DNA of 64,000 nucleotides, from the IMG/VR virus record IMGVR_UViG_3300018472_000401, positions 26,563 through 90,562 of that record; one strand, given 5' to 3'. Position 1 is the first letter of the stretch, and each line of letters begins with the position of its first letter. This DNA is from a virus (lineage: Duplodnaviria > Caudoviricetes). Under the pieces are notes generated by a model, which was given only the letters and a program-made list of their open reading frames with translations, was not told the DNA's origin and did no database searches. The position numbers were made by a program, and so were the translations under genes. Below, in pieces: positions 9,574-25,831 of this stretch.

Positions 9574-10827
9574 TTAGAATTTTGCTCCGTTGTACTTGTA
9601 AACGAGGTTGTCATTCTCGTCCTTGCCGATAGGTGCAAGTGCGCCCTCGAACAACTTGTAGGGCGACTGCCCTGCTTGTGGGTTGTTCCACAGCCAACGC
9701 ATATAGTCAGCCATTGTCATACCCTCGAACTTGGCACGTTTCTCCGATGAATTGCAGTTGTACCCGGTCGCCCTTATCCACTGGAACTGCGACACAAGCC
9801 CGTTGATGTCCTTGCAGACATCGTCCCAGCGCACGATGTGTTCGGGTGAGTTCTTGGCAATCTGCAGAGCCTCGCACCACTGCCCACGTGAGTAGTTCCA
9901 GTTGGCAGGAAGCCCACAGCAAGAGCCGTTACAGCACAACTCCTTGAAGTGCGCATCGGAAACGTAGAAACGCATACCCAGTTCCTCGCAAAGTTGCTTC
10001 ATGTTCCGCATAAAAGGCTCTTTGACTTTGCGGTTCAATCGGAGATACCCAGTGCTTACGCTGAACTTCTTGTAGAAGTCCATGAAGTCAAAGCCGCACA
10101 ACTCGTTGAAAGTCGGCATCCATTGTTTCAGGGTCGGGCTGCGCTGCTCCACGCACATAAATTCCGTACTCATGGCGGTTGCACCACGGTTGGAAGCCTC
10201 TCTAATCAAGTCGAGGTATGACGGGGTAGAAATGCCGATGATGAACGGACGTAGCCGGAGCGTTGCGCCCCCGGCATCTGCCTCCGCAATCTTGCGGATT
10301 GCTTCAAGCCTCTGCATAGGGGTTGGCACACCTCGCTCAATCACGTGCGCCTTGTGTTCGTCCAGCGTGATGATTGAGAACTTGAAGTTCCAGTTTTTCT
10401 GTCCCCGTATGAGTTCCATGTAACGCTCATCCTCCGTGAACCAGGTAGCCTTGGTTGAGAAGCAGAGAGGGTAGTCAATCTCCTTGAAGAAACGGAGAAG
10501 TTCAAGCGTGATGCCGTACTTGCGCTCGAAGCCGTCGAACTGGTCGGACAAGCCGCCCCACTGCATAACCTTACGCTGCTTGATGTACTCCTTGAACTGC
10601 CCTCCGTACTTGTCGGGGTCGGTGAACATACGCTTGATTTTGTCAACCGACACGTGCTTCACGTCTTTGTGCAGATAGTTTTCTTTCGCCCCACCAATCC
10701 CTCGCTGGAACTGGGAGAAACAATACATACAGCCAAATGAGCAATTCGAGTAGGTGTCGAATGTCATTGGCATAGAGCAATCGGCAATCTCGTTGCTCCA
10801 TCTTGGACTTTGGTAATAATCAGCCAT
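9574..10827 (-). CDS. Radical SAM enzyme, spore-photoproduct-lyase (SplB)-like
   Basis: CSFGCMYC (CxxxCxxC); GGLSDQFD..E...TLELL...P...STK as in the SPL-like family. Confidence 0.8.
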   Translation of the reverse strand: MADYYQSPRWSNEIADCSMPMTFDTYSNCSFGCMYCFSQFQRGIGGAKENYLHKDVKHVSVDKIKRMFTDPDKYGGQFKEYIKQRKVMQWGGLSDQFDGFERKYGITLELLRFFKEIDYPLCFSTKATWFTEDERYMELIRGQKNWNFKFSIITLDEHKAHVIERGVPTPMQRLEAIRKIAEADAGGATLRLRPFIIGISTPSYLDLIREASNRGATAMSTEFMCVEQRSPTLKQWMPTFNELCGFDFMDFYKKFSVSTGYLRLNRKVKEPFMRNMKQLCEELGMRFYVSDAHFKELCCNGSCCGLPANWNYSRGQWCEALQIAKNSPEHIVRWDDVCKDINGLVSQFQWIRATGYNCNSSEKRAKFEGMTMADYMRWLWNNPQAGQSPYKLFEGALAPIGKDENDNLVYKYNGAKF

Positions 10828-10829
10828 AA

Positions 10830-11402
10830 CTATTTGTTGATAAATTCTAATACTTGTGAAACTAATTCATTCAGAGGCGTTGTCGCTGTGTTCACCTGTA
10901 ACACCCTTACGCCTATCTCCTGCCACTTCTTTGCGGCTCTCATACAACGCAACTGCTTATCGAATACCTTTCTCACGCTTTGAGCTGTTCTCTTCCCATT
11001 CTTTCCGTTGCTCCTGTTCCCCAGTCGGTTGAAAATGGTAAGGTTGTCGGCATAAAGCGATATTACATACTGCTGTTCTGCCTTGAATAAAGCGTTCATG
11101 AGGTTCATCCCGAAAGTGTCTAAAAAACTACCCTCGCAGATGATTATATCACGATGCTTCAACCCCTCTTCTACGACTTCCGCAAGGCGTGAAGTACAGG
11201 AAGAGCCTTTATCGTTAGTTATTCGGTCAACACCTCCGTATCTCGTTTCTCCGTATCTTCCTGCAAAGCAGATGATGCCCTCCTTGCAGTATGAAACATC
11301 GTTAGTTATTCGGTCAACACCTCCGTATCTCGTTATGATAGCCCACGCCAAAGAGGATTTGCCGGAACAATTTGTACCCGTTATGAACACGCACTTTTTC
11401 AT
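10830..11402 (-). CDS. P-loop nucleotide-kinase-fold protein
   Basis: GTNCSGKS Walker A, IICEG Walker B, RxxxR lid; start MKKCVF at 11402 is ATGA-coupled to the upstream gene. Confidence 0.75.
   Translation of the reverse strand: MKKCVFITGTNCSGKSSLAWAIITRYGGVDRITNDVSYCKEGIICFAGRYGETRYGGVDRITNDKGSSCTSRLAEVVEEGLKHRDIIICEGSFLDTFGMNLMNALFKAEQQYVISLYADNLTIFNRLGNRSNGKNGKRTAQSVRKVFDKQLRCMRAAKKWQEIGVRVLQVNTATTPLNELVSQVLEFINK
11211..11334. repeat. Perfect 37-bp direct repeat inside the kinase gene
   Basis: ATCGTTAGTTATTCGGTCAACACCTCCGTATCTCGTT at 11211-11247 and 11298-11334; encodes TRYGGVDRITND twice. Confidence 0.95.
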
Positions 11403-12073
11403 AGCAAACTGACAATGAGGTTTTCCCACTCGCAGCCCTTGATGTCTTCCAACAGCCTTTCGGTGTAAAAGCCGTTCCAACGTGTCCCCTTGCGAATTTT
11501 CTCAACGGCACACAGGCTTGTTTCGAGGGCAAACACGTTGTCCCCAGTATCACGTTTGGCATCCTCTATGAACTGCGTTAATTTTCCCCGATTTTGCGTT
11601 CTCGCAACTATCTCAGCACCCCTTGTATAGTTTTCCTTTCGCTCGAATTTAAGTGCGAGGTCGTCAATTATTTGCTTTCCGCTGACCTTTGCCCACACTT
11701 CGAGAAAGAGGAAAGCAGCGTACCGCCCGAAGAAGTACCACGATGTAACGATGTTGTATTGCTCCGTTGTGGTCTGCGCCCGGTCAAGTTGCTCCAGCAT
11801 ACCGGGGTTCAAGTTCTGCATAATACGGTCAAAAGTGTCACCAATGCGGACATACCTGCGGTCGGTTCTAAACTTTAATTCGCCTTTCGGTGTATTGTGG
11901 TTGCGCAGGAGCATCAATGCGCTGGGGATATGGTACGTTGTAGCGTAGTAATATACAAGCCGGAAGCTGTTCCAGCGTGACAAATGGAAGTGTGCCGAAA
12001 GTGAGGCAATCATTTTCTCCTCAACTCCGGCATCGCCTCCCATGTGGTATTGTATGTACTCTGCGTAATCCAT
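11399..12073 (-). CDS. Amino acid:DNA transferase-like protein (aGPT-pyrophosphorylase clade 2)
   Basis: GD...; YATTYHIPSA; FRTDRRY; FGRYAAFLFLE; LETSLC..K; RWNGFY..R motifs recalled from this family; needs HMM confirmation. Confidence 0.7.
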   Translation of the reverse strand: MDYAEYIQYHMGGDAGVEEKMIASLSAHFHLSRWNSFRLVYYYATTYHIPSALMLLRNHNTPKGELKFRTDRRYVRIGDTFDRIMQNLNPGMLEQLDRAQTTTEQYNIVTSWYFFGRYAAFLFLEVWAKVSGKQIIDDLALKFERKENYTRGAEIVARTQNRGKLTQFIEDAKRDTGDNVFALETSLCAVEKIRKGTRWNGFYTERLLEDIKGCEWENLIVSLL

Positions 12074-12085
12074 AGGGCAAGTACG

Positions 12086-12880
12086 TTATTCTGCACCCTC
12101 TATTGAGGGGATAATCTCTTCAAGACGGTACACGACCTTGTCAATGGACGGCATACCGAGAAGTTGTGCCAACTCCGGCAGACGCTCTTTGGGGTACACG
12201 ATGATAACACGCTCCATAGCCGTTTCATCCGTTCCCTCAATCTTAGGCAGGGTGTCCGGGTTAATGTCAACGCCCTGCAATTCCGGGGGCAGCGCATCCT
12301 GAAAGGCATCCGCTGGGTTGTCCTCCTCGCTTGCATCAGGCATAGCCGGGGTAGGTTGTGCCGGGGACGGGGTTGCGCCCATAGGGGTAAAGGCGGTGGG
12401 GTTAGCGTTCCACACATCAAGTCCCCAGTCGCCAAGTTTGGCTTCATCCCACTTGTTGGCAAGGGCATCGAAGTCCCACTGACCGAAACTTGCGTTGTCC
12501 TTAATCATGAACTGCTTGCGCTCCGATGCGGATAACTCACTGGCGTTGATAACAAGGGCTGTCGGCTTCTCCAGCCATTTTTCCCAGTAATCGACAAGCA
12601 CCTTGCGCTCGCCATCTGACTTCTCCACAAAGTCGGCTATAGTCAAGAGCCTGTTGGAAATATCCCCTGCGCTCATCTTTGCGATTGCTCGCAATGCCTC
12701 CGTGCGCATATTACCGCCAAGGGCACACATCTTGTTGTCCACAACGATTGGGCGCAACTCCAGCATCTTTGGCAGCACAAGGATTGAGTTGATTAGCTTG
12801 CCGAATTTCTCTTTGGTGATGGTACGGGGGTTGTCCCCGTTGAGTTTCACTTGTGAGAGTTTTACCTGTTCTACTTTCAT
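12086..12880 (-). CDS. ParB N-terminal domain protein
   Basis: NPRTIT...LINSI...RPIVVD...LGGNMR and IKDN motifs; first gene of the packaging operon. Confidence 0.8.
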   Translation of the reverse strand: MKVEQVKLSQVKLNGDNPRTITKEKFGKLINSILVLPKMLELRPIVVDNKMCALGGNMRTEALRAIAKMSAGDISNRLLTIADFVEKSDGERKVLVDYWEKWLEKPTALVINASELSASERKQFMIKDNASFGQWDFDALANKWDEAKLGDWGLDVWNANPTAFTPMGATPSPAQPTPAMPDASEEDNPADAFQDALPPELQGVDINPDTLPKIEGTDETAMERVIIVYPKERLPELAQLLGMPSIDKVVYRLEEIIPSIEGAE

Positions 12881-12913: not shown

Positions 12914-12945
12914 CAAAGTTACACAAATATGTTTGTATTATAAGC
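12914..12945 (-). promoter_or_regulatory. Promoter of the ParB-to-terminase operon with adjacent operator-like site
   Basis: TAACTTTG (12914-12921); GCTTA-TAATA-CAAAC on the minus strand at 12931-12945. Confidence 0.55.
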
Positions 12946-13656: not shown

Positions 13657-14754
13657 TCAGAACACGGAAAATTCGATGCTGTCAATGCGGTTTTTTATCA
13701 CTTTCATTGCCGTTACGACATTCTGTTCCCGATAGTCAAATTTACCCTCAACCCCGGCAAAGGCGACCATGCCCGTGTGGAGGTGCTGGGTGAGCGGTGG
13801 TACGATGCTTGGAGCAAGGTTGCGGTCGTTCAGTTTCTCCGCAAGAAGTTTATCCATATCCCGGTTGTGCTGCTTCAACAGGTCGATAAACAGCGTGGAA
13901 ATAATAGCGTATGTCCGCTGCTCGTCAAAGCCGTACTGCGGCACTTTCCGCTTCAACTCCTGATTTACGGAGAAATAGAGTATTGTCAAGTCCCGGCTTA
14001 TCTCGTCCATGCACATTTCGGTCTGCTTGACTACGTTCTGCAGGTGGTTGTAGTCAAGTTCCCTGCGCAACTCCTCGTTGTACTTCTGATGCACCATTTT
14101 CAGTGTCCGGCTCAACTTCTTTAGCAGAGTGACCTTGTCACGGGCAGCACACGCCATAGCCTTGTCAGCGTACACCCAAGCAAGGTGAGTGATGATGAGC
14201 GGAACGAAAGAAACACGCATCTGTTCGTCCAGCGTGAGCCGTTCCATCATCTTGCGAGTTCTTTCCGAAACATCGTCCCGGAACTTCTTTTCCTGCAACT
14301 CTTTAATGTCGGGCATCTTCGGTTGCTGCCGGGGCTTCTCCGTCTTCGGCTGTGGCAATTCCCCGTCATAGTCCCAAAAGGACAATTTGCCTTTCACGCC
14401 CGTAATCGGTTCGGGAAACATGACCGGGTTAACCAGTACCCAGTTCCATACTCCTTTTTCTGCCCATAGTGATGGGTGGTTCTGAACACAATCGACAATC
14501 TCAACGCTGCCGATGATTGCGCCCTTTGGCAAGTCCTCGTTGCTTCCGTAGAGTTTATCCTTGTGTCCTGACACCTTATCCAACTGCTCCTTGTTTAGCG
14601 CACTCCAGCCCTCCTTCACCGGGGTCTTTGCAGCATGAATAAGCACACGTCCCCGGAAGTTGGTTTTCCATGTCCTGTTTTCTATGTTTTTCAGCCCGGA
14701 CACAATCAGGCTCGCCCACGGCTGTTTAATCGTTATTACTTTCATGCTTTTCAT
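13657..14754 (-). CDS. ASCH domain protein with a long helical C-terminal region
   Basis: ITIKQPWASLI...IENRTW...RG.VLIHA...GAIIGSVEIVD ASCH signature. Confidence 0.8.
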   Translation of the reverse strand: MKSMKVITIKQPWASLIVSGLKNIENRTWKTNFRGRVLIHAAKTPVKEGWSALNKEQLDKVSGHKDKLYGSNEDLPKGAIIGSVEIVDCVQNHPSLWAEKGVWNWVLVNPVMFPEPITGVKGKLSFWDYDGELPQPKTEKPRQQPKMPDIKELQEKKFRDDVSERTRKMMERLTLDEQMRVSFVPLIITHLAWVYADKAMACAARDKVTLLKKLSRTLKMVHQKYNEELRRELDYNHLQNVVKQTEMCMDEISRDLTILYFSVNQELKRKVPQYGFDEQRTYAIISTLFIDLLKQHNRDMDKLLAEKLNDRNLAPSIVPPLTQHLHTGMVAFAGVEGKFDYREQNVVTAMKVIKNRIDSIEFSVF

Positions 14755-14944
14755 ATTCTTCGATGTCATTGATTTTATCCTTAATCAGTTGATAGAAGTT
14801 ATCAGCTTCTTTTGCTTTATGCGAAATGTTCCACCTGAAATAATCAGCAGTCATATATTCGGGGTCTTCCGGCACATGTTCATAAGTAAAAACAGCCCAT
14901 TTGTCGGCAAATAGTATTCGCCATATAGCGCATAATTTTCTCAT
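14726..14944 (-). CDS. Hypothetical phage protein (72 aa)
   Basis: Overlap-coupled with neighbours. Confidence 0.55.
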   Translation of the reverse strand: MRKLCAIWRILFADKWAVFTYEHVPEDPEYMTADYFRWNISHKAKEADNFYQLIKDKINDIEEYEKHESNND

Positions 14945-15248: not shown

Positions 15249-15962
15249 TCACTTGTTTTTATGTTCAACACCATACCCAAACAGGGCAAAATCACCTCTT
15301 GCCGGGTCATTAGGGAATATCTCACGCATTGCGTTAGTAATCTCAACAGCCGTTTTCATGTCCGCTTGCTTCCGGCTCGTCAAGCCAAGTTCCAGTGCCA
15401 TTCTATGCACGTGCGTATCAAGCGGAATTATAAGGCTATCAGGGCTGACCTTTCGCCAAATGCCCATATCCACCGGGCTACCCGTCCGAACTATCCACCG
15501 CAGGAACATACAGAGCCGCTTGCAGGCAGAGCCCTTGTCGTAGTCGGGAATACCGTTGATGCCGTTGAAGTAGGCAGAGAGGGCTTGCACGGGCGTTTTA
15601 TCAGACCAAGCCACTACCATATCCTCCATACGCTCAAAATCCTCATACAGCCTGTATAGGCGGTCGCCCAGCCTGTATAAATCATCGTAGGACAGGAAAC
15701 GGTAAAACTTCCTGTGGTCGTTGTAGTAGAGGTTGTACTGCTTCGTCATTAGCCAGCAATAGGGGTCATCGCAAAAGTCCTTATCCAGCCAGTCAGCCGC
15801 CTTGATGATTGCCTTGCGGTTTCCAAAGGAGAGCCAAGAGGTAATGAAACCGCTGATTTCGGCTCGTTTCCCTATGTGCTTCCGGGGGAACTGCACGGGG
15901 TCATTGGCTATAAAGCCCTCGACCTCGTATTTGTCAGCCCATTCTATCAATTTGCGCTTCAT
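15249..15962 (-). CDS. TIGR02757-like protein (HhH-GPD-related)
   Basis: DPVQFP, ACKRLCMFLRW.VR, D.GIW, IPLDTHV, DP.RGDFALFG. Confidence 0.8.
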   Translation of the reverse strand: MKRKLIEWADKYEVEGFIANDPVQFPRKHIGKRAEISGFITSWLSFGNRKAIIKAADWLDKDFCDDPYCWLMTKQYNLYYNDHRKFYRFLSYDDLYRLGDRLYRLYEDFERMEDMVVAWSDKTPVQALSAYFNGINGIPDYDKGSACKRLCMFLRWIVRTGSPVDMGIWRKVSPDSLIIPLDTHVHRMALELGLTSRKQADMKTAVEITNAMREIFPNDPARGDFALFGYGVEHKNK

Positions 15963-16301: not shown

Positions 16302-16443
16302 CGTCAGCCTCCCTTCCTGTTTCGTGGTGAATTATATCGGAGAAGTCGCAAGCATCAGCCGGGACATTCCCGAATTTTCCTTTTACACACTCTTCGTAAT
16401 ACTTGCAGTCAGCGCAACTACGTTTTTCTTTTGAATTTTCCAT
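16288..16443 (-). CDS. Small Cys-rich protein (51 aa)
   Basis: Hand-translated MENSKEKRSCADCKYYEEC...C; TAATG-coupled to the methyltransferase. Confidence 0.55.
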   Translation of the reverse strand: MENSKEKRSCADCKYYEECVKGKFGNVPADACDFSDIIHHETGREADDETD

Positions 16444-18047
16444 TATATTGCCTTTTTAAGTTCGTTCTTGGATAATGTCTTGCAAAGAGCCTCGCAGAGA
16501 ACTCGTGCCATGTTTACCTCAACCGCATTGCCGATAAACTTCTTTTGGTCTGCCTGTGAGCCTACCAGCACGTAATCTTCGGGAAAGCCCATAATCTTTT
16601 TCAGTTCGGGTATTTTCAGCATACGCATCTTGATGTCGATAATTCCGTAGAGAGCCATAAACTCCTTGATTTTAGCCGTCATCGGGCTATCAGTTGAATA
16701 GACTTCAATAAACACCTCGCCCGTTTCCGCTGTAACAAGATAAGGTGGCATTTTATCCATTCTTGCAATCAGGGTGAAACATGGCTTTTCGACTGAGCCT
16801 CCGACATTCTTGTATTGAGGGTTCATCAAGTAGTGGCGTTTGACCGTTACAAGGTTGAATTTCGGGTTGGTCGTTACAGTATTAGCCGGGACATCCACGG
16901 AAGCTGCCGTACCATTCCCGTACTGCATATCAATGAATTGTTCTGAACGAATAAGGGCTAACCTGTCTTTCGTTGTAACGGTGGGAGAGGGCATTTCAAC
17001 GGAATGGTTATTCCCGTTTCCGTAGTATGCCGATATAAACGCATGGTGGTCTATGGTCGTGATAGTCCCAGCTGGCTCGTTTACGGAGGTGTTCTTGCTG
17101 TCAGGATGTCCGCTGTACTGCTTTGAGAGGAAAGCGACCTGTGCGACCCCAAGCCTATTTTGCGTTGCCACCGTAGGACAAGGTTCATCAATACCTGGTG
17201 CATTATATTTCCCGGTTCTGCTCATGGAATTGTATTTAACAAGAAACGCCTCCTTGCCTCCTGCAATGAATTTTACCAGCCCAGCATATATACGCTCCAG
17301 TGTCTTTTCCGACAACGGTTTATCCCTGAATATCGTTTTGCCCTCGTCTGCGAAGTCAAGAACATCCTTGACGGGCTTCCACTTCGCCAAAGAGCCGAAC
17401 AGCGTATTTGTCCCGTTCTTGTCGTGGGTCTGACGTGGGAAGACAATAGGCAAGCCACCCTTTGCGAAGATGCCAAAAAAGCGTTTCCGGCTTGTGTATG
17501 CACCATAATCAGCAGCGTTGAGTATGCGGTGGTCAAACCTGTAACCGTATGATTTTACTTTGCGCACCCAACGGGTATAACTCTTGCCCTTATCCATAGA
17601 CACGGGCTTGCCGTTCTCGTCCACCTCACCCCAACTCATAAATTCCTCCACGTTCTCAATCTGAATATAGTCCGGGGCTATGGCTTCGATGTATCGGAAC
17701 AAATGTTCGGCAAGTGTCCGGCTGTCGGCATCCCTTGGCTGACCTCCCTTTGCTTTCGAGAAGTTGGTACATTCAAGTGAAGCCCACAAGACTACCAGCG
17801 CACCGGGATTGTCCTCACGGCACTTTTTCAGATGCTCTACAAGTGGGGACAATTCAAGCGTCCTGATGTCCTCCGTGAAGTGCAGCGCATCGGGGTGGTT
17901 TGAAGCGTGGGAGGCTATCGCATTTGCATCGTGGTTTACGCAAGCAATCACATCAGCGCATTGCTCACCGTTCAATCGTGCGGAATTTACGCCCGTGGAA
18001 GTTCCACCAGCACCGCAAAAGAGGTCTATGTATAATAACTTTTTCAT
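16443..18047 (-). CDS. dcm: C5-cytosine DNA methyltransferase
   Basis: IDLFCGAGG (motif I), SLECTNFS (motif IV, EC instead of PC), IENVEEF, R.RFF, IGNAV. Confidence 0.9.
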   Translation of the reverse strand: MKKLLYIDLFCGAGGTSTGVNSARLNGEQCADVIACVNHDANAIASHASNHPDALHFTEDIRTLELSPLVEHLKKCREDNPGALVVLWASLECTNFSKAKGGQPRDADSRTLAEHLFRYIEAIAPDYIQIENVEEFMSWGEVDENGKPVSMDKGKSYTRWVRKVKSYGYRFDHRILNAADYGAYTSRKRFFGIFAKGGLPIVFPRQTHDKNGTNTLFGSLAKWKPVKDVLDFADEGKTIFRDKPLSEKTLERIYAGLVKFIAGGKEAFLVKYNSMSRTGKYNAPGIDEPCPTVATQNRLGVAQVAFLSKQYSGHPDSKNTSVNEPAGTITTIDHHAFISAYYGNGNNHSVEMPSPTVTTKDRLALIRSEQFIDMQYGNGTAASVDVPANTVTTNPKFNLVTVKRHYLMNPQYKNVGGSVEKPCFTLIARMDKMPPYLVTAETGEVFIEVYSTDSPMTAKIKEFMALYGIIDIKMRMLKIPELKKIMGFPEDYVLVGSQADQKKFIGNAVEVNMARVLCEALCKTLSKNELKKAI

Positions 18048-18394
18048 TTTACAATCTTGTTAGGTGTCATATCAATATCCCAGTCGAGGATGTTAGGTGC
18101 GCTCGCATGGATTTCACCGCAGCGCATCCCGAAACTATCTTTCACGATTTGCTTTGCCTCCTCCTTTGAGGTTGCGTACACTTTCGCCTCACCCTCGAAC
18201 ACAAAGCGGATTTTCACCATATAGTCCTGCCGCTGCTCCACCGGGAGGTTGAGCCGGAACAACTTGTTTTCAACGTACCTCCTCTTCCGGGCAATCTTCT
18301 TTCGTTCTTGTTCAGAACTGGCTGCACTCTCTTCCTGCTCCAACTCCTTAATGCGTTTTACATACGCTTCTCTTTTGATTTTAATCTCTTCCAT
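18044..18394 (-). CDS. Hypothetical coiled-coil protein
   Basis: Preceded by TCCACAACAACA. Confidence 0.65.
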   Translation of the reverse strand: MEEIKIKREAYVKRIKELEQEESAASSEQERKKIARKRRYVENKLFRLNLPVEQRQDYMVKIRFVFEGEAKVYATSKEEAKQIVKDSFGMRCGEIHASAPNILDWDIDMTPNKIVK

Positions 18395-18472
18395 TGTTGT
18401 TGTGGATTGTTATTTTCTTCAAATCTCAAGCGAGCGCAACTAAATACGCTCGCTTGGAACATTCGTTGCTTT

Positions 18473-19276
18473 TTACTTTTTCGTTGCATTAGGCGCAAGA
18501 TTTCGCCACTTCCTGCGGTCTTCTCCCCGTATCTCGAAATAGTTGCACATTTCGCTTAATCGGCTTGCTACACGGTCGCCATAGCGGTTAAGCAGCTTGT
18601 CGCCTCCCAGTTTTAGGTTGGTGGTAATCAGCGTGAGGCAGTCCGACCTGTCGCCCCGGTACTCAATCAGGGAGCGCATCACCTCCAACCTGTTGCCCAT
18701 ATAAAGCGACTCCAGCGGCTCGCTGCCGAAGTCCTGCACGGAAAGGATATTGCGTTGCTTGAACCTCCGTATGTCCCCGGTTTCGGTATAGGTGTCGCAG
18801 AGGGCATCGGCACGGACGGAGTTCCACGACAATGGGCAGGTGTCCCGTTCCTCGACATATTTCACCTTGAAACCCATTACCCGGCAATACGCTTGCATAA
18901 TATCCAAGCACCAAGACTTTCCCGTGCCAGTCGCCCCGGCTATGTAGATGCCGTGCCTGAGATTTCCCGGTATCACCTGCGATGTTTCGGGGTGTAGGCA
19001 CTGCATCTTCGTGTCGCAGCGGCACCAGCGTATGAAGTTCTCATACGTGAAGCGGTTTTCATCGTCAATCACGAAATACGGGGTGCGGCTCTTGCCGATT
19101 GCCTCAATTATCTGCATTTCCTCCTCCATGTCGTAGTCGAGGTACTGATAACGGGTTATCTGCGCAAACAAGCCCCTTTCCCGGATTGCATTCAGAATGA
19201 GGTCAATTTTCGGGGTCTGCACTTTCACGGTTTTCTCGTTACCGTTCTTGTCCTTGATGTTTTTCGTTACTTCCAT
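18473..19276 (-). CDS. DnaC/IstB-like ATPase (helicase loader)
   Basis: GATGTGKS, QDFGSE, ITTNL, R..SRL.EMC; follows the initiator. Confidence 0.75.
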   Translation of the reverse strand: MEVTKNIKDKNGNEKTVKVQTPKIDLILNAIRERGLFAQITRYQYLDYDMEEEMQIIEAIGKSRTPYFVIDDENRFTYENFIRWCRCDTKMQCLHPETSQVIPGNLRHGIYIAGATGTGKSWCLDIMQAYCRVMGFKVKYVEERDTCPLSWNSVRADALCDTYTETGDIRRFKQRNILSVQDFGSEPLESLYMGNRLEVMRSLIEYRGDRSDCLTLITTNLKLGGDKLLNRYGDRVASRLSEMCNYFEIRGEDRRKWRNLAPNATKK

Positions 19277-20148
19277 TCGTCATTGCAATTTCTGTTGTTA
19301 GCATTATATCTCTTGGCAGCAGCCTGTTCGGGCTTGTTGTCGTAATTTCCCTCATAGACCTTGACCCAGTTCTTGTCGTTCTCGAAAAGCCAGTCGAAAG
19401 ATGCTTTCCAGCCTCGCTTGTTGTCGCCTTTCAGGAACTTGCTCTGCTGCATCTTCTCGAAAATCTGCTTAATCAACGGGAGAGCCTTTTCCAAGCCGCC
19501 CATTTCCGCAATGCGGATGCGCATCTTGTTTTTACGTGGTTCGGAGAGCGTGTACAATTTCGGGAAGCCCGTGCAGGTTTCATTCCACATAGCCTTTATG
19601 TCCTTAAATGGCAATTTCTCTGCTTTGGGCTTTTCCGGCTCAACGGCTTGTGCCTCGTCAGAGGCAGAAGAAAGTTGGTCGTTAGACCCACTCTCTTGCT
19701 TAATATCTTTGATATTATATTCTTTACTTCTTATATTCTTTACTTCTGTACTTGTGGTCGTTTGGCTGGTCGTTTTGTCGGTCGTTTGCAGGTCGTTTGT
19801 TAGTCGCTCTGCTGGTCTTTCTGCTGGTCGATTGATAACATCATCACTTTGGTATTCATCATATTTACAAATAGTTATGACCGAATATTTGTTGGTCGCT
19901 TTGATGGATATTTCGCCAGTCGTTTTCAGTCGTGAAAGGCACGTCCTTATCTTACGGTCTGTCAGTCGTAAATCCTTGCACATTTTATCACGGCTGGTTA
20001 TCAACTGACCACGCTTTATGGTAACGCCCCTCCAAACAACATCCTTGTAGTTTGCGTTCAGCAATAGATACAGGAACAACTGCACCATTTCTGCAATATC
20101 GAACCATTCCCATTGCAGAAACTTATTGTATATTTTAATCCATGCCAT
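19267..20148 (-). CDS. Phage replication initiator
   Basis: N-terminal wHTH (LFLYLLLNAN...RGQLITS), internal iterons, C-terminal W.ASFDWL. Confidence 0.8.
   Translation of the reverse strand: MAWIKIYNKFLQWEWFDIAEMVQLFLYLLLNANYKDVVWRGVTIKRGQLITSRDKMCKDLRLTDRKIRTCLSRLKTTGEISIKATNKYSVITICKYDEYQSDDVINRPAERPAERLTNDLQTTDKTTSQTTTSTEVKNIRSKEYNIKDIKQESGSNDQLSSASDEAQAVEPEKPKAEKLPFKDIKAMWNETCTGFPKLYTLSEPRKNKMRIRIAEMGGLEKALPLIKQIFEKMQQSKFLKGDNKRGWKASFDWLFENDKNWVKVYEGNYDNKPEQAAAKRYNANNRNCNDEWK
19700..19837. repeat. Replication origin: seven GGTCGTTT-type 11-12 bp iterons plus AT-rich tract
   Basis: Copies begin at 19756, 19768, 19780, 19791, 19802, 19814 and 19826; TATATTCTTTACTTCT occurs twice in the adjacent AT-rich stretch. 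Confidence 0.7.
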
Positions 20149-20157
20149 ATCGCTAAC

Positions 20158-21312
20158 TTATTTTCTAAAGTAAACATTCGTCAGTTGCCTATACCCGGAG
20201 AATACAGCCCATATACCCGGCTTTGTCTGCCGCATCATCAACTCGTCAACCCTGCCGAAACGCTTGTAGTTTCCGCATAAATCAACCACCCAACTGACCT
20301 TATCCTTGTACGGACGGATAGCCCTGCCGCACATCTGATAATACAGAGCCAGCGACATAGTCGGTCGGGCAAGTACCACGGTGGAAAGTTCCGGGAAGTC
20401 GAAACCCGTTGTCAGGACACCCACATTTGCCACTACGCTGATTTTTTTCTGCTTGAACAACCGAAGTATTGCCTCACGGTCTGCCTTGCTCGTATCGCTG
20501 CTTACGACTGCCGCAGAAGCACCGCAGTTCCTCGCCACATACTCCGCTTCCTCGATGAACCGGGTAAACACCAGTATCGAAGTCCTCCCGGCTACCAAGA
20601 GCCGCTGGATGATGTTCTCCAACGTGTCGTTGAACTTGATTTCCCGATAGTATCGCCTTACGCTGGCATCGGTATAATCAGCCCCGGTGCTGTTTACTTT
20701 CAGTCGGCTGGTATCTACCACGTTCAACTGGTAATAGTTCATGTTGGCGAGGTAGCCCCGGTTCAGGAGCGTTTTCACGTCCACGTGGTAAAGCACATCA
20801 TTGAAAATTCTTGGGTTCGTCCTCGTGATGAAACGGAGCATTGAACCGTAGAACCTGTTTGAGTAAAGGCGGTACGGGGTTGCCGTCAGTCCTAAAACCT
20901 TGCACTGGATTGTTTCGATGAAGTCCTTGTACATTCCTGCCTCTGCATTGACATAGTGGCACTCGTCAATGATAACGTAGCGGAAACGCCTGAAATAGTC
21001 CTTGCAGTTCTTTACGCTCCCTATGGTCGCAAAGGTGATTTTCTGAACCTCCTTGCGGTTGAATGAAGCCGAGAATATCCCGACATGGAAAACACCGTAG
21101 GAGCAAAGTTTCTCGTAGTTCTGCTCCAATATCTCCTTTGAGGGCTGGAATATCAGCACCGGGGCATCAAGCCGGGCGGCAATATCTGCAATGACAAGGC
21201 TTTTCCCTGCGCCCGTTGGAAGCACAATGATACCGTTTTTCTTGTCGTTCCGCTGAAAGAACGACACTGCGGCATCGGAAGCCTGTTGTTGATAATCTCT
21301 TAACTGATACAT
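20158..21312 (-). CDS. Superfamily 2 DEAD/DEAH-type helicase
   Basis: LRDYQ, PTGAGKS, DECH, LTATP, TTGFD, QMCGR. Confidence 0.9.
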   Translation of the reverse strand: MYQLRDYQQQASDAAVSFFQRNDKKNGIIVLPTGAGKSLVIADIAARLDAPVLIFQPSKEILEQNYEKLCSYGVFHVGIFSASFNRKEVQKITFATIGSVKNCKDYFRRFRYVIIDECHYVNAEAGMYKDFIETIQCKVLGLTATPYRLYSNRFYGSMLRFITRTNPRIFNDVLYHVDVKTLLNRGYLANMNYYQLNVVDTSRLKVNSTGADYTDASVRRYYREIKFNDTLENIIQRLLVAGRTSILVFTRFIEEAEYVARNCGASAAVVSSDTSKADREAILRLFKQKKISVVANVGVLTTGFDFPELSTVVLARPTMSLALYYQMCGRAIRPYKDKVSWVVDLCGNYKRFGRVDELMMRQTKPGIWAVFSGYRQLTNVYFRK

Positions 21313-21328
21313 ATATTGTTGTCTAAAT

Positions 21329-21384
21329 TAGTGCCGTAGGCAGGGGTCAAACCTGCAATCGCTGTCAAAGTCCAGCCCTACGGC
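21329..21384 (-). ncRNA. D-armless tRNA-like element
   Basis: 7-bp acceptor GCCGUAG/CUACGGC, 5-bp T-arm GCAGG-UUUGACC-CCUGC, small central arm containing CUUUGAC. Confidence 0.5.
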
Positions 21385-21406
21385 TACCGTTTAGTTCACG
21401 GCTCGT

Positions 21407-22150
21407 TTACTGCTCGATAATCACGATGTCCGGACAGCGTTCCTTGATGCGCTCCAGCACGGCATCAATCTCACGGTCACGCATTTCTTCCACGAGGTCG
21501 TTTGCCTCCGGGGAAACGAGTGTGCAGGAGAAGTCGGACGGGTTCACGTACACCTCCACAGCGATTGTCTGCTTGGCAGTTCCCTTGAAGATGGGCAGAA
21601 TGAGGGTGAACGCCTCCGGCAGATTGTGTTCCACAGCCTGGTTAATCAGGATGCGTCTGTCGCCACGGTTGTTGTTGCTCTGCTCAATCTCCTTATCGAC
21701 CTTTGCCTTGAAGTTCTGCAAGTCCGTTACCAGCTTCATGGCGACTGACTTGTTCTCGAAGAATGAGCGGTTCATCTTGATGAGTTCAGCCATTTCAAAA
21801 TTGGTGATGTACTCTCCCTCATTGATGCCGAAACGCTTGTACTCCGGGGAGAGGGTCAGAGAGCCAACAACGAGAGTGCCGTAGTGGTTATTCTCGTTGC
21901 ACTGCAGGGCGATTGTCAACTGCTCACGGTTCACAATCACGTGGCAGGTCTTTTCCTTGATGCAGTCGAAACGTGTTTCCAGCCAACGGGCAGCGGCATC
22001 AATCGTACCCTGTATCTTAACCTTGACAGGCTCTTTCAGTTCCACTGCCTTACCCTCACGGATAACGATTTCACCCACGCCAGCAGGAAGTCCGTTGGCT
22101 ACCATTTCAGCAATCTGCTTCTTTACTTCTTCTTTGATTTTCTGTTCCAT
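21407..22150 (-). CDS. Conserved phage early protein (possibly DUF2303/YfdQ-like)
   Basis: 247 aa; C-terminal PEAFTL.LPIFKG. Confidence 0.5.
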   Translation of the reverse strand: MEQKIKEEVKKQIAEMVANGLPAGVGEIVIREGKAVELKEPVKVKIQGTIDAAARWLETRFDCIKEKTCHVIVNREQLTIALQCNENNHYGTLVVGSLTLSPEYKRFGINEGEYITNFEMAELIKMNRSFFENKSVAMKLVTDLQNFKAKVDKEIEQSNNNRGDRRILINQAVEHNLPEAFTLILPIFKGTAKQTIAVEVYVNPSDFSCTLVSPEANDLVEEMRDREIDAVLERIKERCPDIVIIEQ

Positions 22151-22185
22151 TTTGATGTAATTTTGAATGTTTATAAATTGGTTGA

Positions 22186-22614
22186 TTAGCCCTCAGTGCC
22201 AGTTCTCAAAACCGGGGAAAACATGCTCTTCTGCATTTCCTCCGGGCGACCGGGGCGGCAGTAAACAAGCAAGCCCTCACGGTTGTAGTAGCCCACTTCA
22301 CGGGTTTCCGTGTCAACGAACTTGAAGCAAGCCTCCGTGACAAACTCACTCTTGGCTTTCAGTTTCCCGGTTACTTCATCGTTGCTCTCCTCCAACTGCT
22401 TGATTTGGTCGTTGAACTCCTTGTTGGCGGCTTTCTTGTCGGCACGGACATCACGCAGTTGGATGTTGTTCTCAACAAGGCGGTCTTTCAGTGCCTCGAT
22501 TTCCTCATTCGGAAGCTGCTTCGTGTAGCCCAAATCCTCGACCGCATCGCAGTTGTCACGCAGAAAGTCAATTCTTGCCTTTCCCTCGTACTCTTGTCCT
22601 AAAACTTTATCCAT
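22186..22614 (-). CDS. Hypothetical coiled-coil phage protein
   Basis: Operonic, A-rich leader. Confidence 0.7.
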   Translation of the reverse strand: MDKVLGQEYEGKARIDFLRDNCDAVEDLGYTKQLPNEEIEALKDRLVENNIQLRDVRADKKAANKEFNDQIKQLEESNDEVTGKLKAKSEFVTEACFKFVDTETREVGYYNREGLLVYCRPGRPEEMQKSMFSPVLRTGTEG

Positions 22615-22630
22615 ATTGAATTGAATTTAT

Positions 22631-22652
22631 GGGGCAGCGGAATTGCCGCCCC
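22631..22652. other. GC-rich hairpin downstream of the DGR-like target gene
   Basis: GGGGCAGC-GGAATT-GCCGCCCC. Confidence 0.6.
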
Positions 22653-22663
22653 GGTTAGTAATC

Positions 22664-23212
22664 TTATTTCTCTTCCTCCGGCTTGAAAACATAATCAGCC
22701 CAAATCTCAACGAACTGGCGACCTGCGTATTCCGAAAGTTCACTTGTCTTGAAGGCAAGCCGAGAACCAATGCCCGTGCTCGTGTCCGATGAATCGTTGT
22801 ACGTGAGCGCATACGCAACACCGCCATACGCATTCGCATAGCCGTCCGACCGATACACCACACGGCTTTTCTCTTCCTCACTCATTTCGTCAATCTCCGA
22901 CTGGGTATAGAGGTAGAACCACGGGAAATAGCGGTATTCATCCGTAGTGAACTGGGGCTTCCAGCCCTCGTTGAGAGCCGCTGCGATGATGCGCAGTTTC
23001 AGGTAGGCGATTACATCGGCTTCAAGTCCGAGGTCTTTCTTGTCCTGCACCCACTTGTCATGCTCAATGCCTAATTCATTACAGGCATCCTTGAATGTCT
23101 TGACACGCTCCATTACGTTTTGGGGCTTCTCGTCCACGAGTGTTAGCACTCCGTTTACCCATTCGGGCTTCTTGCCGTTAGGCACTTCGATTTCAATCTT
23201 TTTTGAGTTCAT
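22664..23212 (-). CDS. Early phage protein with a DGR variable-repeat-like C-terminus
   Basis: YRSDGYANAYGGVAYALTYNDSSDTSTGIGSRLAF; codon pattern consistent with an AAY-rich template. Confidence 0.65.
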   Translation of the reverse strand: MNSKKIEIEVPNGKKPEWVNGVLTLVDEKPQNVMERVKTFKDACNELGIEHDKWVQDKKDLGLEADVIAYLKLRIIAAALNEGWKPQFTTDEYRYFPWFYLYTQSEIDEMSEEEKSRVVYRSDGYANAYGGVAYALTYNDSSDTSTGIGSRLAFKTSELSEYAGRQFVEIWADYVFKPEEEK

Positions 23213-23393
23213 CTTTTAATCGTTTTACAAGTTGATAATCAATTTCTTTGTTGTCTTTTAACTTCCTGACAAGCAATCCAGCACGGCGTTTGAGGTTATA
23301 CACCCGATTGCTGCCCTTATCGGCTGTCAACTCGATAAATGAGGTCAGGAAGTCAATAACATCTTGCCGCTGCTGGTTGCTTATCATGTGCAT
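23193..23393 (-). CDS. Hypothetical phage protein (66 aa)
   Basis: Operonic position. Confidence 0.6.
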   Translation of the reverse strand: MHMISNQQRQDVIDFLTSFIELTADKGSNRVYNLKRRAGLLVRKLKDNKEIDYQLVKRLKDELKKD

Positions 23394-23404
23394 ATCTTCG
23401 GACT

Positions 23405-23695
23405 TTAGAATGGCAAATCATCCTCATTGCCGGAAGCGGTGGAAGCACCTTGCGCTCCCGTAGCGTTATTGTTCTGATAACTGCTTGGCTTCAATTCCCC
23501 AATGTAGTAGTTCACGCCCTCACGCTGCTGCTCCTTTTTGCAGTGAGCCTTGACATAGTGGGTCATTCCGAACTGCGATACCTCTCTGCGCTTGTTTACC
23601 ACGATATTGAGGTACTTCTTGCCGTTCTTGCCGACCGTGATAAGTTCTTTTGGAATGTCCGTCAGGCATAGGCTTCCGTACAGGTTCTCTTCCAT
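23405..23695 (-). CDS. Single-stranded DNA-binding-like protein
   Basis: Acidic EDDLPF tail; follows the exonuclease. Confidence 0.6.
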   Translation of the reverse strand: MEENLYGSLCLTDIPKELITVGKNGKKYLNIVVNKRREVSQFGMTHYVKAHCKKEQQREGVNYYIGELKPSSYQNNNATGAQGASTASGNEDDLPF

Positions 23696-24675
23696 TATTT
23701 GAGCAAAAATCTACGTGAACCGGGAACTTGATACTGGTAGTTTGCGTAGAGTTCCGGTTTGTCTGCTGCAAACTGCTTTTCGTTAAACTTCGTGCTGTCC
23801 TTTGCCGCTTTCCATGTGGCGAGGATGGTTGGCTTTGCTTTGTTCACTCCGGGAGCAACAAGAGCCTCCGCATCACCGATAGCCATCTTGATGGTATTTT
23901 CAAGTTCTTTCTTGCGGCTGTCAAGCCCTCCAAGTTCCTCCTTGATGGTCTTTAGTTCTGAACACATGGCAATCAGTTCATCGTCTGCCTCCACGCTCTT
24001 GCCGACAACGTGTCTTGGGTTCTTCAGGAGGACATCTTCAACACTGGAAAGGAGCGGTTCTTGCTTGCCCACGATGTTGTCAGTCCAAAACTTATCAACC
24101 TCCTCAATCATGTAGTCGTAAAATTCCTTGTCGAACATCATATCACGGTAGCCGAACTCACGCCCCATAGTGAGCCATGCAAGCGCACCCTGTTCCAGTT
24201 CTGCAACGCCCAACTGATACTGGAGTTGGCAGAACCAGTGCTGCGGCAGGCTGTCCGCATCGACCTCCATCTGTGTTGTCTTGCACTCCAAGATACCCTT
24301 GTTGCGGTCTGACTTGGGTCTGCCCGGTATCCAAAACGTGCGGTCAGGGGACACACGCAGGTACTGCTTTTCGTTATTTACTATAAGCCAGTCCCCAGCG
24401 GAAGCCTTGATAATCTCCTTGCCTGTCTCATCACGGTAGAAAAGGCTTACGGCATCTTCGAGGTAATGCCCGGCTTTCATTGCGAAGTTCTCTTGCTTCG
24501 GAGCGTCCAGCCCCATTTTCCTGCGCCATAACTGATACGGGGTTTCAAACGGGTTCAAGCCGAGGATTGTTCCTACTTCCGATGAACCGATACCGCTCTC
24601 ACGGTGTTTCAACCACTCTTGGCGGTCTTTTGGTCTGATGATTGTGTAGCTCATATTATCTGCAAAGTTTTTCAA
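23695..24675 (-). CDS. YqaJ-like viral exonuclease
   Basis: WL..R..GIGSSE, G..LE, SPDR, LECKT, QLQYQL. Confidence 0.85.
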   Translation of the reverse strand: MKNFADNMSYTIIRPKDRQEWLKHRESGIGSSEVGTILGLNPFETPYQLWRRKMGLDAPKQENFAMKAGHYLEDAVSLFYRDETGKEIIKASAGDWLIVNNEKQYLRVSPDRTFWIPGRPKSDRNKGILECKTTQMEVDADSLPQHWFCQLQYQLGVAELEQGALAWLTMGREFGYRDMMFDKEFYDYMIEEVDKFWTDNIVGKQEPLLSSVEDVLLKNPRHVVGKSVEADDELIAMCSELKTIKEELGGLDSRKKELENTIKMAIGDAEALVAPGVNKAKPTILATWKAAKDSTKFNEKQFAADKPELYANYQYQVPGSRRFLLK

Positions 24676-24910
24676 GTAACATACTCATATCAGCATCACG
24701 GAAGATTTTAGCGGCTACACCGCCATCCATCTTTGTTCGCTTCACGGCTTCAACAAGGAGTTTTCCACTACCCATTACGGCAACAGAAGTTTTGCACTTT
24801 GTTTCCTCCTCATTGCGTTCTTTTTCTTCGATTGCAATTACCAAGATTTCACGTTTTTTACCCTCTTCATTCTGCCAAGTCTCAATGGCTGATTTCAAAT
24901 TTTCTGTCAT
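24656..24910 (-). CDS. Hypothetical phage protein (84 aa)
   Basis: Preceded by CTCCACAACAACA. Confidence 0.6.
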   Translation of the reverse strand: MTENLKSAIETWQNEEGKKREILVIAIEEKERNEEETKCKTSVAVMGSGKLLVEAVKRTKMDGGVAAKIFRDADMSMLLEKLCR

Positions 24911-24949
24911 AATTTTGATGTTGTTGTGGAGCTTGCGCCCCGGTTGATA

Positions 24950-25831
24950 TTATTGTTTAATTTCTCCTGTTTCCTTATCGACATTTTCCGGCACATCGTC
25001 ACTCTTCGTCTTGCCCTGTCGCTTTTGAGCCGCCAAAGCCTTTTCCTTGGCTTCCTCCGACTTCTTCTTTGCTTCGGCAGCTTGTCGCTTCTCCTGAATA
25101 GGCTTCATGAAACTTTCCTCAACGGTGGTCGTTCCCTCCTTGATAGCGTTGGCGGTAGCACGGAGTTCAAACACTGCCTCCTTGTCGATTTCCTCACGCT
25201 TCTTCAATCCGAGATATTCAAGCAGAAGTTCCTCTGACACTCCGAGTTTAGCGAAGTATTGTATCATGTTCTGACGGCTTGTTTCGAGGTCGAGGGACTG
25301 ACCGAGCGCAACTTGCTTGACATCGGCAATTACTCGCTTGGTAACAGCTTTAGGCACGATTTTCAAGACGGCATTACGGAAAGCAATCGCACTGGCAGCA
25401 TTACCCGTAACCACCTGCATATCCTCCGAAAAAGTTTTGCCGTACTTGTCGGTAATTCTGCGCTTGACCTCAACGCTCACGGCTACGTTGGTTTCGAGGT
25501 CGTGGCAGATGCCCTGCGCTGTTACCGTCTTGCCGTCATTGCCGATGATGCGTGTCTGAACACGGAGGTTTCCCCACGCCCCAGCAATGATTTCAGCCAT
25601 ACGGACGGACAACCCCTCAATGGTATTGCTTCCGTTCTGACCGCCTCTGCGAAGCACATAGAAACAGTCAGAGGCTGTTTCAGTGTCCATAGTTGCGTAG
25701 GTCGCAATCTTGTTAAGAACTTCCGGCAGGTTGCGAGGGTACTGCTTTGCCGTTGATACCTGCATATCAATCTCGCTGCGATTGATAGCCTGCAAGACTT
25801 CCGCTTGCTTGATTTCGATAATTTCGCTCAT
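24950..25831 (-). CDS. Putative single-strand annealing recombinase
   Basis: AK.YPR, FY.L.RG, IEG.S.R.AE...AWGN, A.DLETN; near the YqaJ exonuclease. Confidence 0.55.
   Translation of the reverse strand: MSEIIEIKQAEVLQAINRSEIDMQVSTAKQYPRNLPEVLNKIATYATMDTETASDCFYVLRRGGQNGSNTIEGLSVRMAEIIAGAWGNLRVQTRIIGNDGKTVTAQGICHDLETNVAVSVEVKRRITDKYGKTFSEDMQVVTGNAASAIAFRNAVLKIVPKAVTKRVIADVKQVALGQSLDLETSRQNMIQYFAKLGVSEELLLEYLGLKKREEIDKEAVFELRATANAIKEGTTTVEESFMKPIQEKRQAAEAKKKSEEAKEKALAAQKRQGKTKSDDVPENVDKETGEIKQ

Follow-up and report, generated by a model that had tools for sequence, protein, structure and literature searches.

The 64,000-nucleotide stretch of DNA analysed here (the window) comprises positions 26,563-90,562 of the IMG/VR record IMGVR_UViG_3300018472_000401, a provirus of 90,562 bp that is 100% complete according to CheckV. 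The window contains adjacent genes for a ParB-like protein, a putative amino acid:DNA transferase (AADT), a P-loop kinase, and a radical S-adenosylmethionine (SAM) enzyme (rSAM), which stand upstream of the terminase and portal genes. We propose, with a probability of roughly 60%, that the four genes form a DNA hypermodification cassette in the late operon of a temperate Bacteroidales phage, in which the rSAM, assisted by ParB, makes 5-hydroxymethyluracil (5hmU) in DNA by an oxygen-free reaction, after which an amino acid is added by the kinase and the AADT. The rSAM thus appears, from the comparison of related sequences, to take the role held in other phages by TET/JBP dioxygenases or by hydroxymethylases of deoxyuridine monophosphate (dUMP). 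The genes of the cassette and those that follow it are:

12880-12086, minus strand, ParB-like protein, 264 aa
12073-11399, minus strand, AADT-like protein (amino acid:DNA transferase), 224 aa
11402-10830, minus strand, P-loop kinase, 190 aa
10827-9574, minus strand, rSAM, 417 aa
9570-9004, minus strand, terS, 188 aa, assigned from its position and size
9017-7407, minus strand, terL, 536 aa, identified by tblastn against an annotated terminase large subunit
7394-6015, minus strand, SPP1-type portal protein, 459 aa, PF05133 (E 9e-29)

The initial annotation of this DNA, made from the sequence alone, described the four genes as a tight, partly overlapping unit leading directly into terS-terL, and the coordinates bear this out. 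The ParB and AADT genes are separated by 12 nt, the AADT and kinase genes overlap by 4 nt (ATGA), gaps of 2 nt and 3 nt precede and follow the rSAM gene, and terS shares 14 nt with terL. All of the motifs listed in that annotation were found: CxxxCxxC in the rSAM, Walker A in the kinase, the NPR and GGNMR boxes in ParB, and ETSLC in the AADT. The terL product is 28.8% identical over 91% of its length to the annotated terminase large subunit (E 4e-42). The terS product has a weak N-terminal match to a MerR-like helix-turn-helix (HTH) and matches phrog_645 (E 4e-21), a family labelled 'Rnase E', which looks like a mis-annotated terS family.

In known phages, 5-hydroxymethyldeoxyuridine (5hmdU) is made either from dUMP by a thymidylate-synthase homologue or in the DNA itself by a TET/JBP dioxygenase (PMC8989533). 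Six-frame hidden Markov model (HMM) searches of the whole 90,562-bp provirus detected neither the thymidylate synthase domain PF00303 nor the TET/JBP domain PF12851. The observation that no hydroxymethylase or TET/JBP is visible in the window hence holds for the complete provirus, and the canonical 5hmdU pathway that might have been encoded in the rest of the prophage was searched for and not found. The same searches detected neither domain in a set of 38 related viral records, of which 19 have a completeness of 90% or more, and in five more distant rSAM-bearing records, of which three reach that completeness. This gives 43 related rSAM records (22 at least 90% complete) in which no known maker of 5hmU was recognised, or 23 records at least 90% complete when this provirus is included. 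The PF12851 search was validated by its detection of gp2 of mycobacteriophage Cooper (E 4e-8) and by its matches in 37 of the 42 AADT records described below. Cooper gp2 (locus L082, NC_008195, 785-1753) is annotated as 'queuine tRNA-ribosyltransferase' and matches the TET/JBP oxygenase domain; its gene is located between a ParB-like gene and terS, in the slot occupied here by the rSAM gene.

The relation between the rSAM and the known makers was analysed in a sample of a long AADT clade, the members of which are 44-63% identical to an AADT encoded beside a kinase and a fusion of rSAM with a TET-associated glycosyltransferase (TAGT). The 42 longer records of this sample were searched whole, with the following result:

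TET/JBP: 37 of 42 records; 11 of the 15 records at least 90% complete
thymidylate-synthase (ThyA) homologue: 2 of 42 records; 1 of the 15 at least 90% complete
this rSAM family (whole-record profile search): 3 of 42 records; 3 of the 15 at least 90% complete
more than one maker, or none: 0 of 42 records; 0 of the 15 at least 90% complete

The three records without TET and ThyA are exactly those with the rSAM, an outcome that has a chance of 1 in C(42,3) = 11,480 by simple counting. In a maximum-likelihood tree of 65 AADTs, the rSAM-linked sequences occupy at least three separately supported places. The rSAM-linked AADT of locus L181 pairs with the TET-linked L172 as its sister (support 99/93). 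The long-AADT clade of Bacteroidales lies inside a TET clade as the sister of the TET-linked L190 (support 95/86), and the AADT clade of the window is a separate rSAM-linked place. The well-supported branches of the tree force at least three swaps between rSAM and TET. The gene order is ParB-TET/JBP-GATase-AADT-P-loop-TerL in the TET-bearing locus L228 and ParB-GATase-AADT-GNAT-rSAM-TerL in the rSAM-bearing L181. TAGTs provide a small replicate. No TET was found in three searched records of the four rSAM-linked TAGTs, the 6-kb contig L072 being outside the TET search, and six of six other TAGT relatives occur with TET and without the rSAM. The either-or distribution, the swaps, and the matching layout together argue that the rSAM fills the niche of the maker, a pattern that marks non-orthologous displacement.

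The rSAM is the most conserved gene of the cassette, with at least 68% identity across 80 viral loci. A ParB gene is located upstream of it in 68 of these loci, and terS follows it directly in 58. The rSAM and ParB are fixed, and the slot between them is variable:

AADT and kinase: this window
AADT, kinase, and GNAT: the most common form
GNAT alone: L030
kinase alone: L054
GATase, long AADT, kinase, and GNAT: L037
cytidylyltransferase set: L035
TAGT: L053, L072
empty, with ParB directly followed by rSAM: L107

An rSAM with 77% identity to that of the window adjoins a TAGT in a locus without an AADT, and the family also occurs in fusion proteins with the domain orders TAGT-rSAM, rSAM-TAGT, kinase-rSAM-TAGT, and rSAM-FkbM methyltransferase. 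All AADT relatives of the window clade with enough flanking DNA are followed by this rSAM. Because the rSAM is constant while the adduct-makers vary, it is unlike a tailoring enzyme, which would track its substrate adduct.

The main competing explanation is that the rSAM is nevertheless a tailoring enzyme, comparable to gp53 of phage M6, which the initial annotation left out of account, and that 5hmU comes from an unrecognised source. The M6 cluster for 5-NedU encodes, side by side, the AADT gp51, the pyridoxal-phosphate (PLP) enzyme gp52, the rSAM gp53, which resembles spore photoproduct lyase (SPL) and is a proven isomerase, and the P-loop kinase gp54, a 5-hydroxymethyl-dU DNA kinase (5-HMUDK) (Lee et al., NAR 2021, PMC8989533). 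The cassette of the window shares with it the adjacent AADT, P-loop kinase, and SPL-like rSAM, the ET.LC motif of the AADT, and the catalytic columns of the kinase, and Lee et al. attribute a tailoring function to the rSAM genes of comparable metavirome clusters. With gp53, the rSAM of the window shares a homologous core (hhalign 97%), but the similarity is limited to residues 27-289 with 17-20% identity and does not extend to the two termini, so that by sequence the two enzymes do not qualify as orthologues. M6 makes 5hmdU before replication with the thymidylate-synthase homologue gp58, whereas the prophage does not have one. The PLP partner of gp53, a decarboxylase, is missing from the cassette of the window, as are GNAT or flavin adenine dinucleotide (FAD) tailoring genes. 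Furthermore, rSAM orthologues of 70-82% identity are found without an AADT, accompanied by a GNAT only, a kinase only, or a TAGT, or in the arrangement ParB-rSAM alone. No maker of 5hmU was recognised in any of the 23 records with a completeness of 90% or more, and the rSAM excludes TET and ThyA rather than joining them. We therefore consider a tailoring function unlikely and favour the rSAM as the maker of the hydroxyl-bearing base.

The rSAM contains the motif C29-x3-C33-x2-C36. Its predicted structure has a predicted local distance difference test (pLDDT) value of 95.7, and its best matches in the PDB are the SPL entries 4FHC and 4K9R (E 7.5e-9, ~307 aligned columns); the earlier description of the enzyme as SPL-like was thus correct at the level of the fold. 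At the level of sequence, no PDB entry was matched by phmmer or by profile search, the profiles of the rSAM and AADT alignments (A2 and A4) retrieving nothing relevant. The nearest NCBIfam models are PA0069 (57 bits, cut-off 360) and Rv2578c (39 bits, cut-off 430), and no curated family was matched. By sequence, the enzyme does not belong to the SPL family, of which it matches only the fold, and it differs from SPL in an extra C-terminal domain and in a conserved pair of cysteines. This C303-C304 pair, as well as C17, is at least 90% conserved among sequences down to 25% identity, and C225 and C280 are conserved in ~65% of the sequences. C17, C303, and C304 may bind a second cluster or take part in catalysis of a radical or covalent kind. 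In IMG/VR, 179 stretches encode relatives of the rSAM with identities of 68-100%, and 1323 relatives are present in a protein library clustered at 50%. A collection of cultured phages provided no relative of the AADT and only two weak matches of the rSAM, both of which are records of uncultured human-faecal phages. Three rSAM homologues (P0128, P0131, and P0137) bear inteins with Hint and LAGLIDADG domains near their N-terminal part.

Close relatives of the rSAM come from Bacteroidaceae, Prevotella, Segatella copri, Phocaeicola, Duncaniella, and other gut and rumen genomes, and the cassette was found in gut metagenomes of cattle, pigs, and birds from several studies. A related cassette is carried by the cultured Segatella copri strains HDE04 (L104) and H-2632 (L105). 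The cultured S. copri form, ParB-X235-kinase-rSAM, is one of those in which a slot gene next to the rSAM gene belongs to no Pfam family (L035:5735-8008, L026:5023-5730, and L104:4707-5192, encoding proteins of 355, 266, and ~235 aa); some of these genes accompany a cytidylyltransferase-like gene. Bacteroidales of the gut and rumen are strict anaerobes and are not known to sporulate. The last point bears on the possibility that the cassette does not serve the modification of phage DNA at all, and that the rSAM instead repairs DNA in the manner of SPL or assists packaging, while the AADT- and kinase-like genes have other targets. Although the best structural match of the rSAM is a repair enzyme, its hosts form no spores, its gene context is one of modification and not of repair, and it is fused to enzymes that modify DNA bases. 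The rSAM gene is also tied strictly to those of the AADT, kinase, TAGT, and ParB, and its distribution complements that of TET/JBP. A function other than DNA modification is accordingly very improbable.

The ParB-like protein contains an N-terminal nucleotide-binding domain (residues ~1-160) with the NPR and GGNMR boxes, which matches ParB families of PHROG with E values from 1e-13 to 4.5e-17. A variable linker of Pro, Ala, and Ser separates this domain from the conserved C-terminal block (~65 aa, residues ~196-258 in the 24-sequence alignment A3). No DNA-binding domain was recognised in the protein, and Pfam detected no HTH. This architecture corresponds to that of the ParB activators of phage thymine dioxygenases, and the coupling of ParB to the rSAM is suggested by analogy with them. 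In the ParB-dependent clusters of 5mYOX enzymes (TET/JBP clade C1), ParB, which likewise consists of a nucleotide-binding and a C-terminal domain with no evident DNA-binding domain, activates the thymine dioxygenase on double-stranded DNA (O'Toole et al., PNAS 2026, PMC13229309). These clusters share with the cassette and its relatives the P-loop kinase, the AADT, the GATase and GNAT, the latter two in relatives of the window, and the neighbouring terminase. They modify DNA after replication, and the same is proposed for the cassette of the window. The Fe(II)/2-oxoglutarate dioxygenase, however, is absent from the provirus and from the 43 related records, which encode the rSAM with the SPL fold instead, and the hosts of the window lineage are obligate anaerobes. 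The idea in the initial annotation that ParB directs the modification to DNA being packaged gained no support; in the parallel that has been published, ParB activates a thymine dioxygenase on double-stranded DNA (PMC13229309).

The either-or distribution identifies the niche of the maker and neither its product nor the level at which it acts. The rSAM might make a DNA handle other than a hydroxymethyl group, or it might act before replication on nucleotides such as dTMP or dTTP, as makers of the ThyA type do (PMC8989533). The fold of the rSAM is, however, that of an enzyme that flips lesions out of DNA, and ParB partners are known for dioxygenases that act on the polymer (PMC13229309). Pfam scans recognised no polymerase or deoxynucleotide (dNTP)-pool domain among the nine open reading frames (ORFs) at 18044-25831, which include a superfamily 2 helicase and a YqaJ-type nuclease, and seven ORFs without a match. 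A different handle is difficult to reconcile with the kinase and TAGT partners, both of which need a hydroxyl. These alternatives have little probability, and the formation of 5hmU in the polymer is preferred.

The transferase assignment of the gene at 11399-12073 survived HMM, profile-profile, and fold tests. A large protein database contains 532 homologues of the AADT, and many of those with 75-94% identity had already been annotated with PF18724 (ADDT). In a profile-profile comparison, the AADT clade of the window was aligned by hhalign to a member of PF18724 that scores 73 bits, with a probability of 96.8% and an E value of 2e-10. The AlphaFold model of the AADT (pLDDT 93) has an all-helical, two-bundle, glycosylase-like fold as in gp46 of phage PaMx11, and its top three PDB matches are from 8Z2N/8Z2M (PaMx11 gp46/PUGT, a 5-phosphomethyl-dU glycinyltransferase; PMC11472151), with template modelling (TM) scores of 0.68-0.71, the highest being 0.71 when normalised to the query, and a probability of 1.00. 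The next matches are AGOG glycosylases with TM scores of 0.34-0.42. In spite of the shared fold, gp46 and the AADT of the window are only 16% identical, differ in length (291 versus 224 aa), and are not linked directly by sequence searches. BLASTP comparisons of the AADT with M6 gp51, and of the kinase with M6 gp54, were also insignificant, and hhalign of the alignment A4 with gp51 aligned only the ET.LC motif. In the AADT of the window, this motif is E184-T-S-L-C188, with a nearly invariant E184 and an invariant C188 in A4, and it lines up with VETVLC of M6 gp51 and ETTLC of the long AADT clade. The conserved Glu and Cys are the proposed active-site residues of the clade-2 aGPT-Pplase enzymes (PMC8989533). 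The nucleoside-contacting Cys of PaMx11 gp46 is reported as residue 247, which is the number of the ET.LC Cys in the equally long M6 gp51, so that a comparison of numbering through gp51 leads to C188. Sequence motif and modelled fold support the assignment of the AADT to the clade-2 aGPT-Pplase type, and the enzyme is predicted to act on 5-phosphomethyl-dU in DNA.

The kinase gene starts with the ATG at 11402, in agreement with the N-termini of its homologues; the mechanically called ORF with a TTG start (10830-11480) is over-extended. The kinase has the Walker A motif GTNCSGKS and matches phrog_800 (E 1.2e-11). Twelve columns are invariant in the kinase alignment A1, which includes M6 gp54, among them G9, G14, K15, D59, E90, G91, R126, and R130. 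The kinases in the slots of relatives reach 42 and 33 bits with PF18751 (Ploopntkinase3), and that of the window is below the detection of this model. The protein is predicted to be a kinase of the 5-HMUDK type, homologous to M6 gp54 and adjoining the AADT. The viral contig L003 and a 56-kb contig of the DNA run X3 have an in-frame deletion of 87 bp corresponding to 11211-11297, between two direct repeats that encode RYGGVDRITND, which removes 29 aa just after the P-loop. The copy in the window is full length, and its apparent 'internal duplication' was recognised by alignment as the deletion in L003 and X3.

The base on which the rSAM acts may be approached through the occurrence of C5-methyltransferases. 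The prophage encodes such an enzyme 3.6 kb upstream of the cassette, with the motifs I (DLFCGAGG), IV (ECTNFS, in which the Cys is kept), and ENV. The rSAM could thus act on 5-methylcytosine (5mC) made by this multispecific methyltransferase, and the resulting 5-hydroxymethylcytosine would be decorated by the kinase and the transferase; phage 5mYOX enzymes are able to oxidise both T and 5mC (PMC13229309). However, PF00145 is present in only 7 of the 38 related rSAM-bearing records, and in 1 of the 19 that are at least 90% complete, whereas the rSAM is kept at 70% identity or more regardless. This mirrors the frequency of 6% reported for 5mYOX pathways (PMC13229309). In addition, the characterised AADTs and 5-HMUDKs use derivatives of 5hmU (PMC8989533). 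Because C5-methyltransferases are rare in the rSAM-bearing records, thymine is the likelier general substrate, and a pathway through 5mC is quite unlikely. In this prophage, 5mC may be a secondary substrate, for which the methyltransferase is a possible but not a required source. The suggestion in the initial annotation that an SPL-like rSAM, and not TET or a hydroxymethylase, activates the C5 methyl group post-replicatively is strengthened by the presence of one maker per related AADT cluster, the three or more swaps, and the fusions to TAGT and kinase, while its extension to 5mC as a general substrate is not.

Several points weigh against the proposed function. We know of no rSAM that hydroxylates DNA. 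The only rSAM characterised in the hypermodification of thymidine is the tailoring isomerase M6 gp53 (PMC8989533). The absence of a maker depends on the sensitivity of the HMMs, and PF12851 misses 5-17% of phage 5mYOX contigs (PMC13229309); an unrecognised maker that always travels with the rSAM may exist. The co-occurrence of rSAM and TET was surveyed within the AADT and TAGT samples, the independent swaps number only about three to four, and most of the rSAM-bearing records come from one lineage of Bacteroidales phages. Two of the enzymes score just below the thresholds of their families, the rSAM with 26.1 bits against the cut-off of 29.5 for PF04055 (Radical_SAM), and the AADT with 24.7 bits against the gathering cut-off of 26.2 for PF18724. 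A SPASM or twitch auxiliary-cluster domain was not detected in the rSAM.

Based on the gene content, folds, and comparative pattern, a pathway can be proposed, the chemistry of which is inferred throughout. After replication, the rSAM and ParB would convert thymine in DNA to 5hmU, or to an equivalent hydroxyl-bearing C5 handle, independently of O2. The 5'-deoxyadenosyl radical would take a hydrogen from the C5 methyl group of thymine, and the allylic radical would lose one electron to an iron-sulfur cluster, giving an exocyclic-methylene cation. The addition of water to the cation would yield 5hmU, with SAM as the oxidant and water as the source of oxygen. The overall reaction balances with SAM as a two-electron oxidant, and an external acceptor is therefore not strictly needed. 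Both kinds of intermediate have precedents: the chemistry of SPL passes through a thymine C5-methylene (allylic) radical in DNA, and an exocyclic-methylene electrophile is also used by hydroxymethylases of the thymidylate-synthase type and by AADTs. By analogy with its dioxygenase-activating counterparts, ParB would help the rSAM to act on duplex DNA. The P-loop kinase would phosphorylate the hydroxymethyl group to 5-phosphomethyl-dU (5-PmdU), as its homology to the M6 and PaMx11 enzymes suggests, and the AADT would displace the phosphate with an amino acid or an amine.

Whether this function extends to the whole rSAM family is an evenly balanced question. The family may consist of ParB-assisted, O2-independent hydroxylases of the thymine C5 methyl group in DNA, with SAM as oxidant and water as the oxygen source. 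Such enzymes would be the anaerobic counterpart of TET/JBP and the first rSAMs that install, and not merely tailor, a DNA base modification; in phages that infect anaerobes of the gut and rumen, they would supply 5hmU for modular decorations with amino acids, phosphate, sugars, and acetyl groups. A pathway that hypermodifies thymine after replication, with genes for ParB, kinase, and AADT beside the terminase, is of a known type, but the class of initiating enzyme proposed here is not. An rSAM that hydroxylates DNA was not described in the literature searched, which is not proof that none has been published, and the PNAS 2026 paper (PMC13229309) mentions neither rSAM enzymes nor anaerobes.

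Upstream of the cassette are genes for a RuvC-like resolvase, an ASCH-domain protein, a DUF2400/TIGR02757 protein, and the C5-methyltransferase, and a candidate promoter precedes the ParB gene:

12914..12921, minus strand, candidate promoter box TAACTTTG, matching the Bacteroidota -7 promoter consensus
13657-14769, minus strand, ASCH-domain protein
15249-15962, minus strand, DUF2400/TIGR02757 protein (E 1e-62)
16443..18047, minus strand, C5-cytosine DNA methyltransferase, phrog_116 (E 1e-79)

The TAACTTTG box is located 33 nt upstream of the ATG of ParB, within the gap of 83 nt after the RuvC-like gene. The motif is not enriched in the window (4 found, 2.4 expected), and only its position is suggestive. 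The DUF2400/TIGR02757 and ASCH genes, between the methyltransferase and RuvC-like genes, are uncommon in the set of 80 related loci, where they occur in 5-9. In motif IV of the methyltransferase, ECTNFS, Glu replaces the usual Pro ahead of the catalytic Cys. A second C5-methyltransferase gene (41198-42802, plus strand) is a paralogue with 71.5% identity to the minus-strand copy at 16443-18047. It belongs to an apparent second phage-like module, which has structural genes on the plus strand at 52-64 kb, among them an ORF of 1159 aa (56974-60453) that has the size of a tape-measure protein and putatively encodes one. Contigs from RNA libraries span the cassette, and they may derive from DNA.

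Bacteroidales phages are among the most abundant in animal and human guts. The known routes to 5-hydroxymethylpyrimidines require either a hydroxymethylase of the thymidylate-synthase type together with a phage polymerase or an O2-dependent TET/JBP enzyme. Neither route fits a temperate phage that has no recognised polymerase or dNTP-pool gene of its own and that replicates in an anoxic gut. If the proposed function is correct, it would explain how Bacteroidales phages hypermodify thymine, and oxygen-free enzymatic writing of 5hmU into DNA would be possible. It would also constitute a new type of rSAM reaction, the C-H hydroxylation of a DNA base, and the role of ParB as an activator would reach beyond dioxygenases. 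In the gut virome, such modifications probably shape the escape from restriction and other defences, and the sequencing of these phages can be biased by them.

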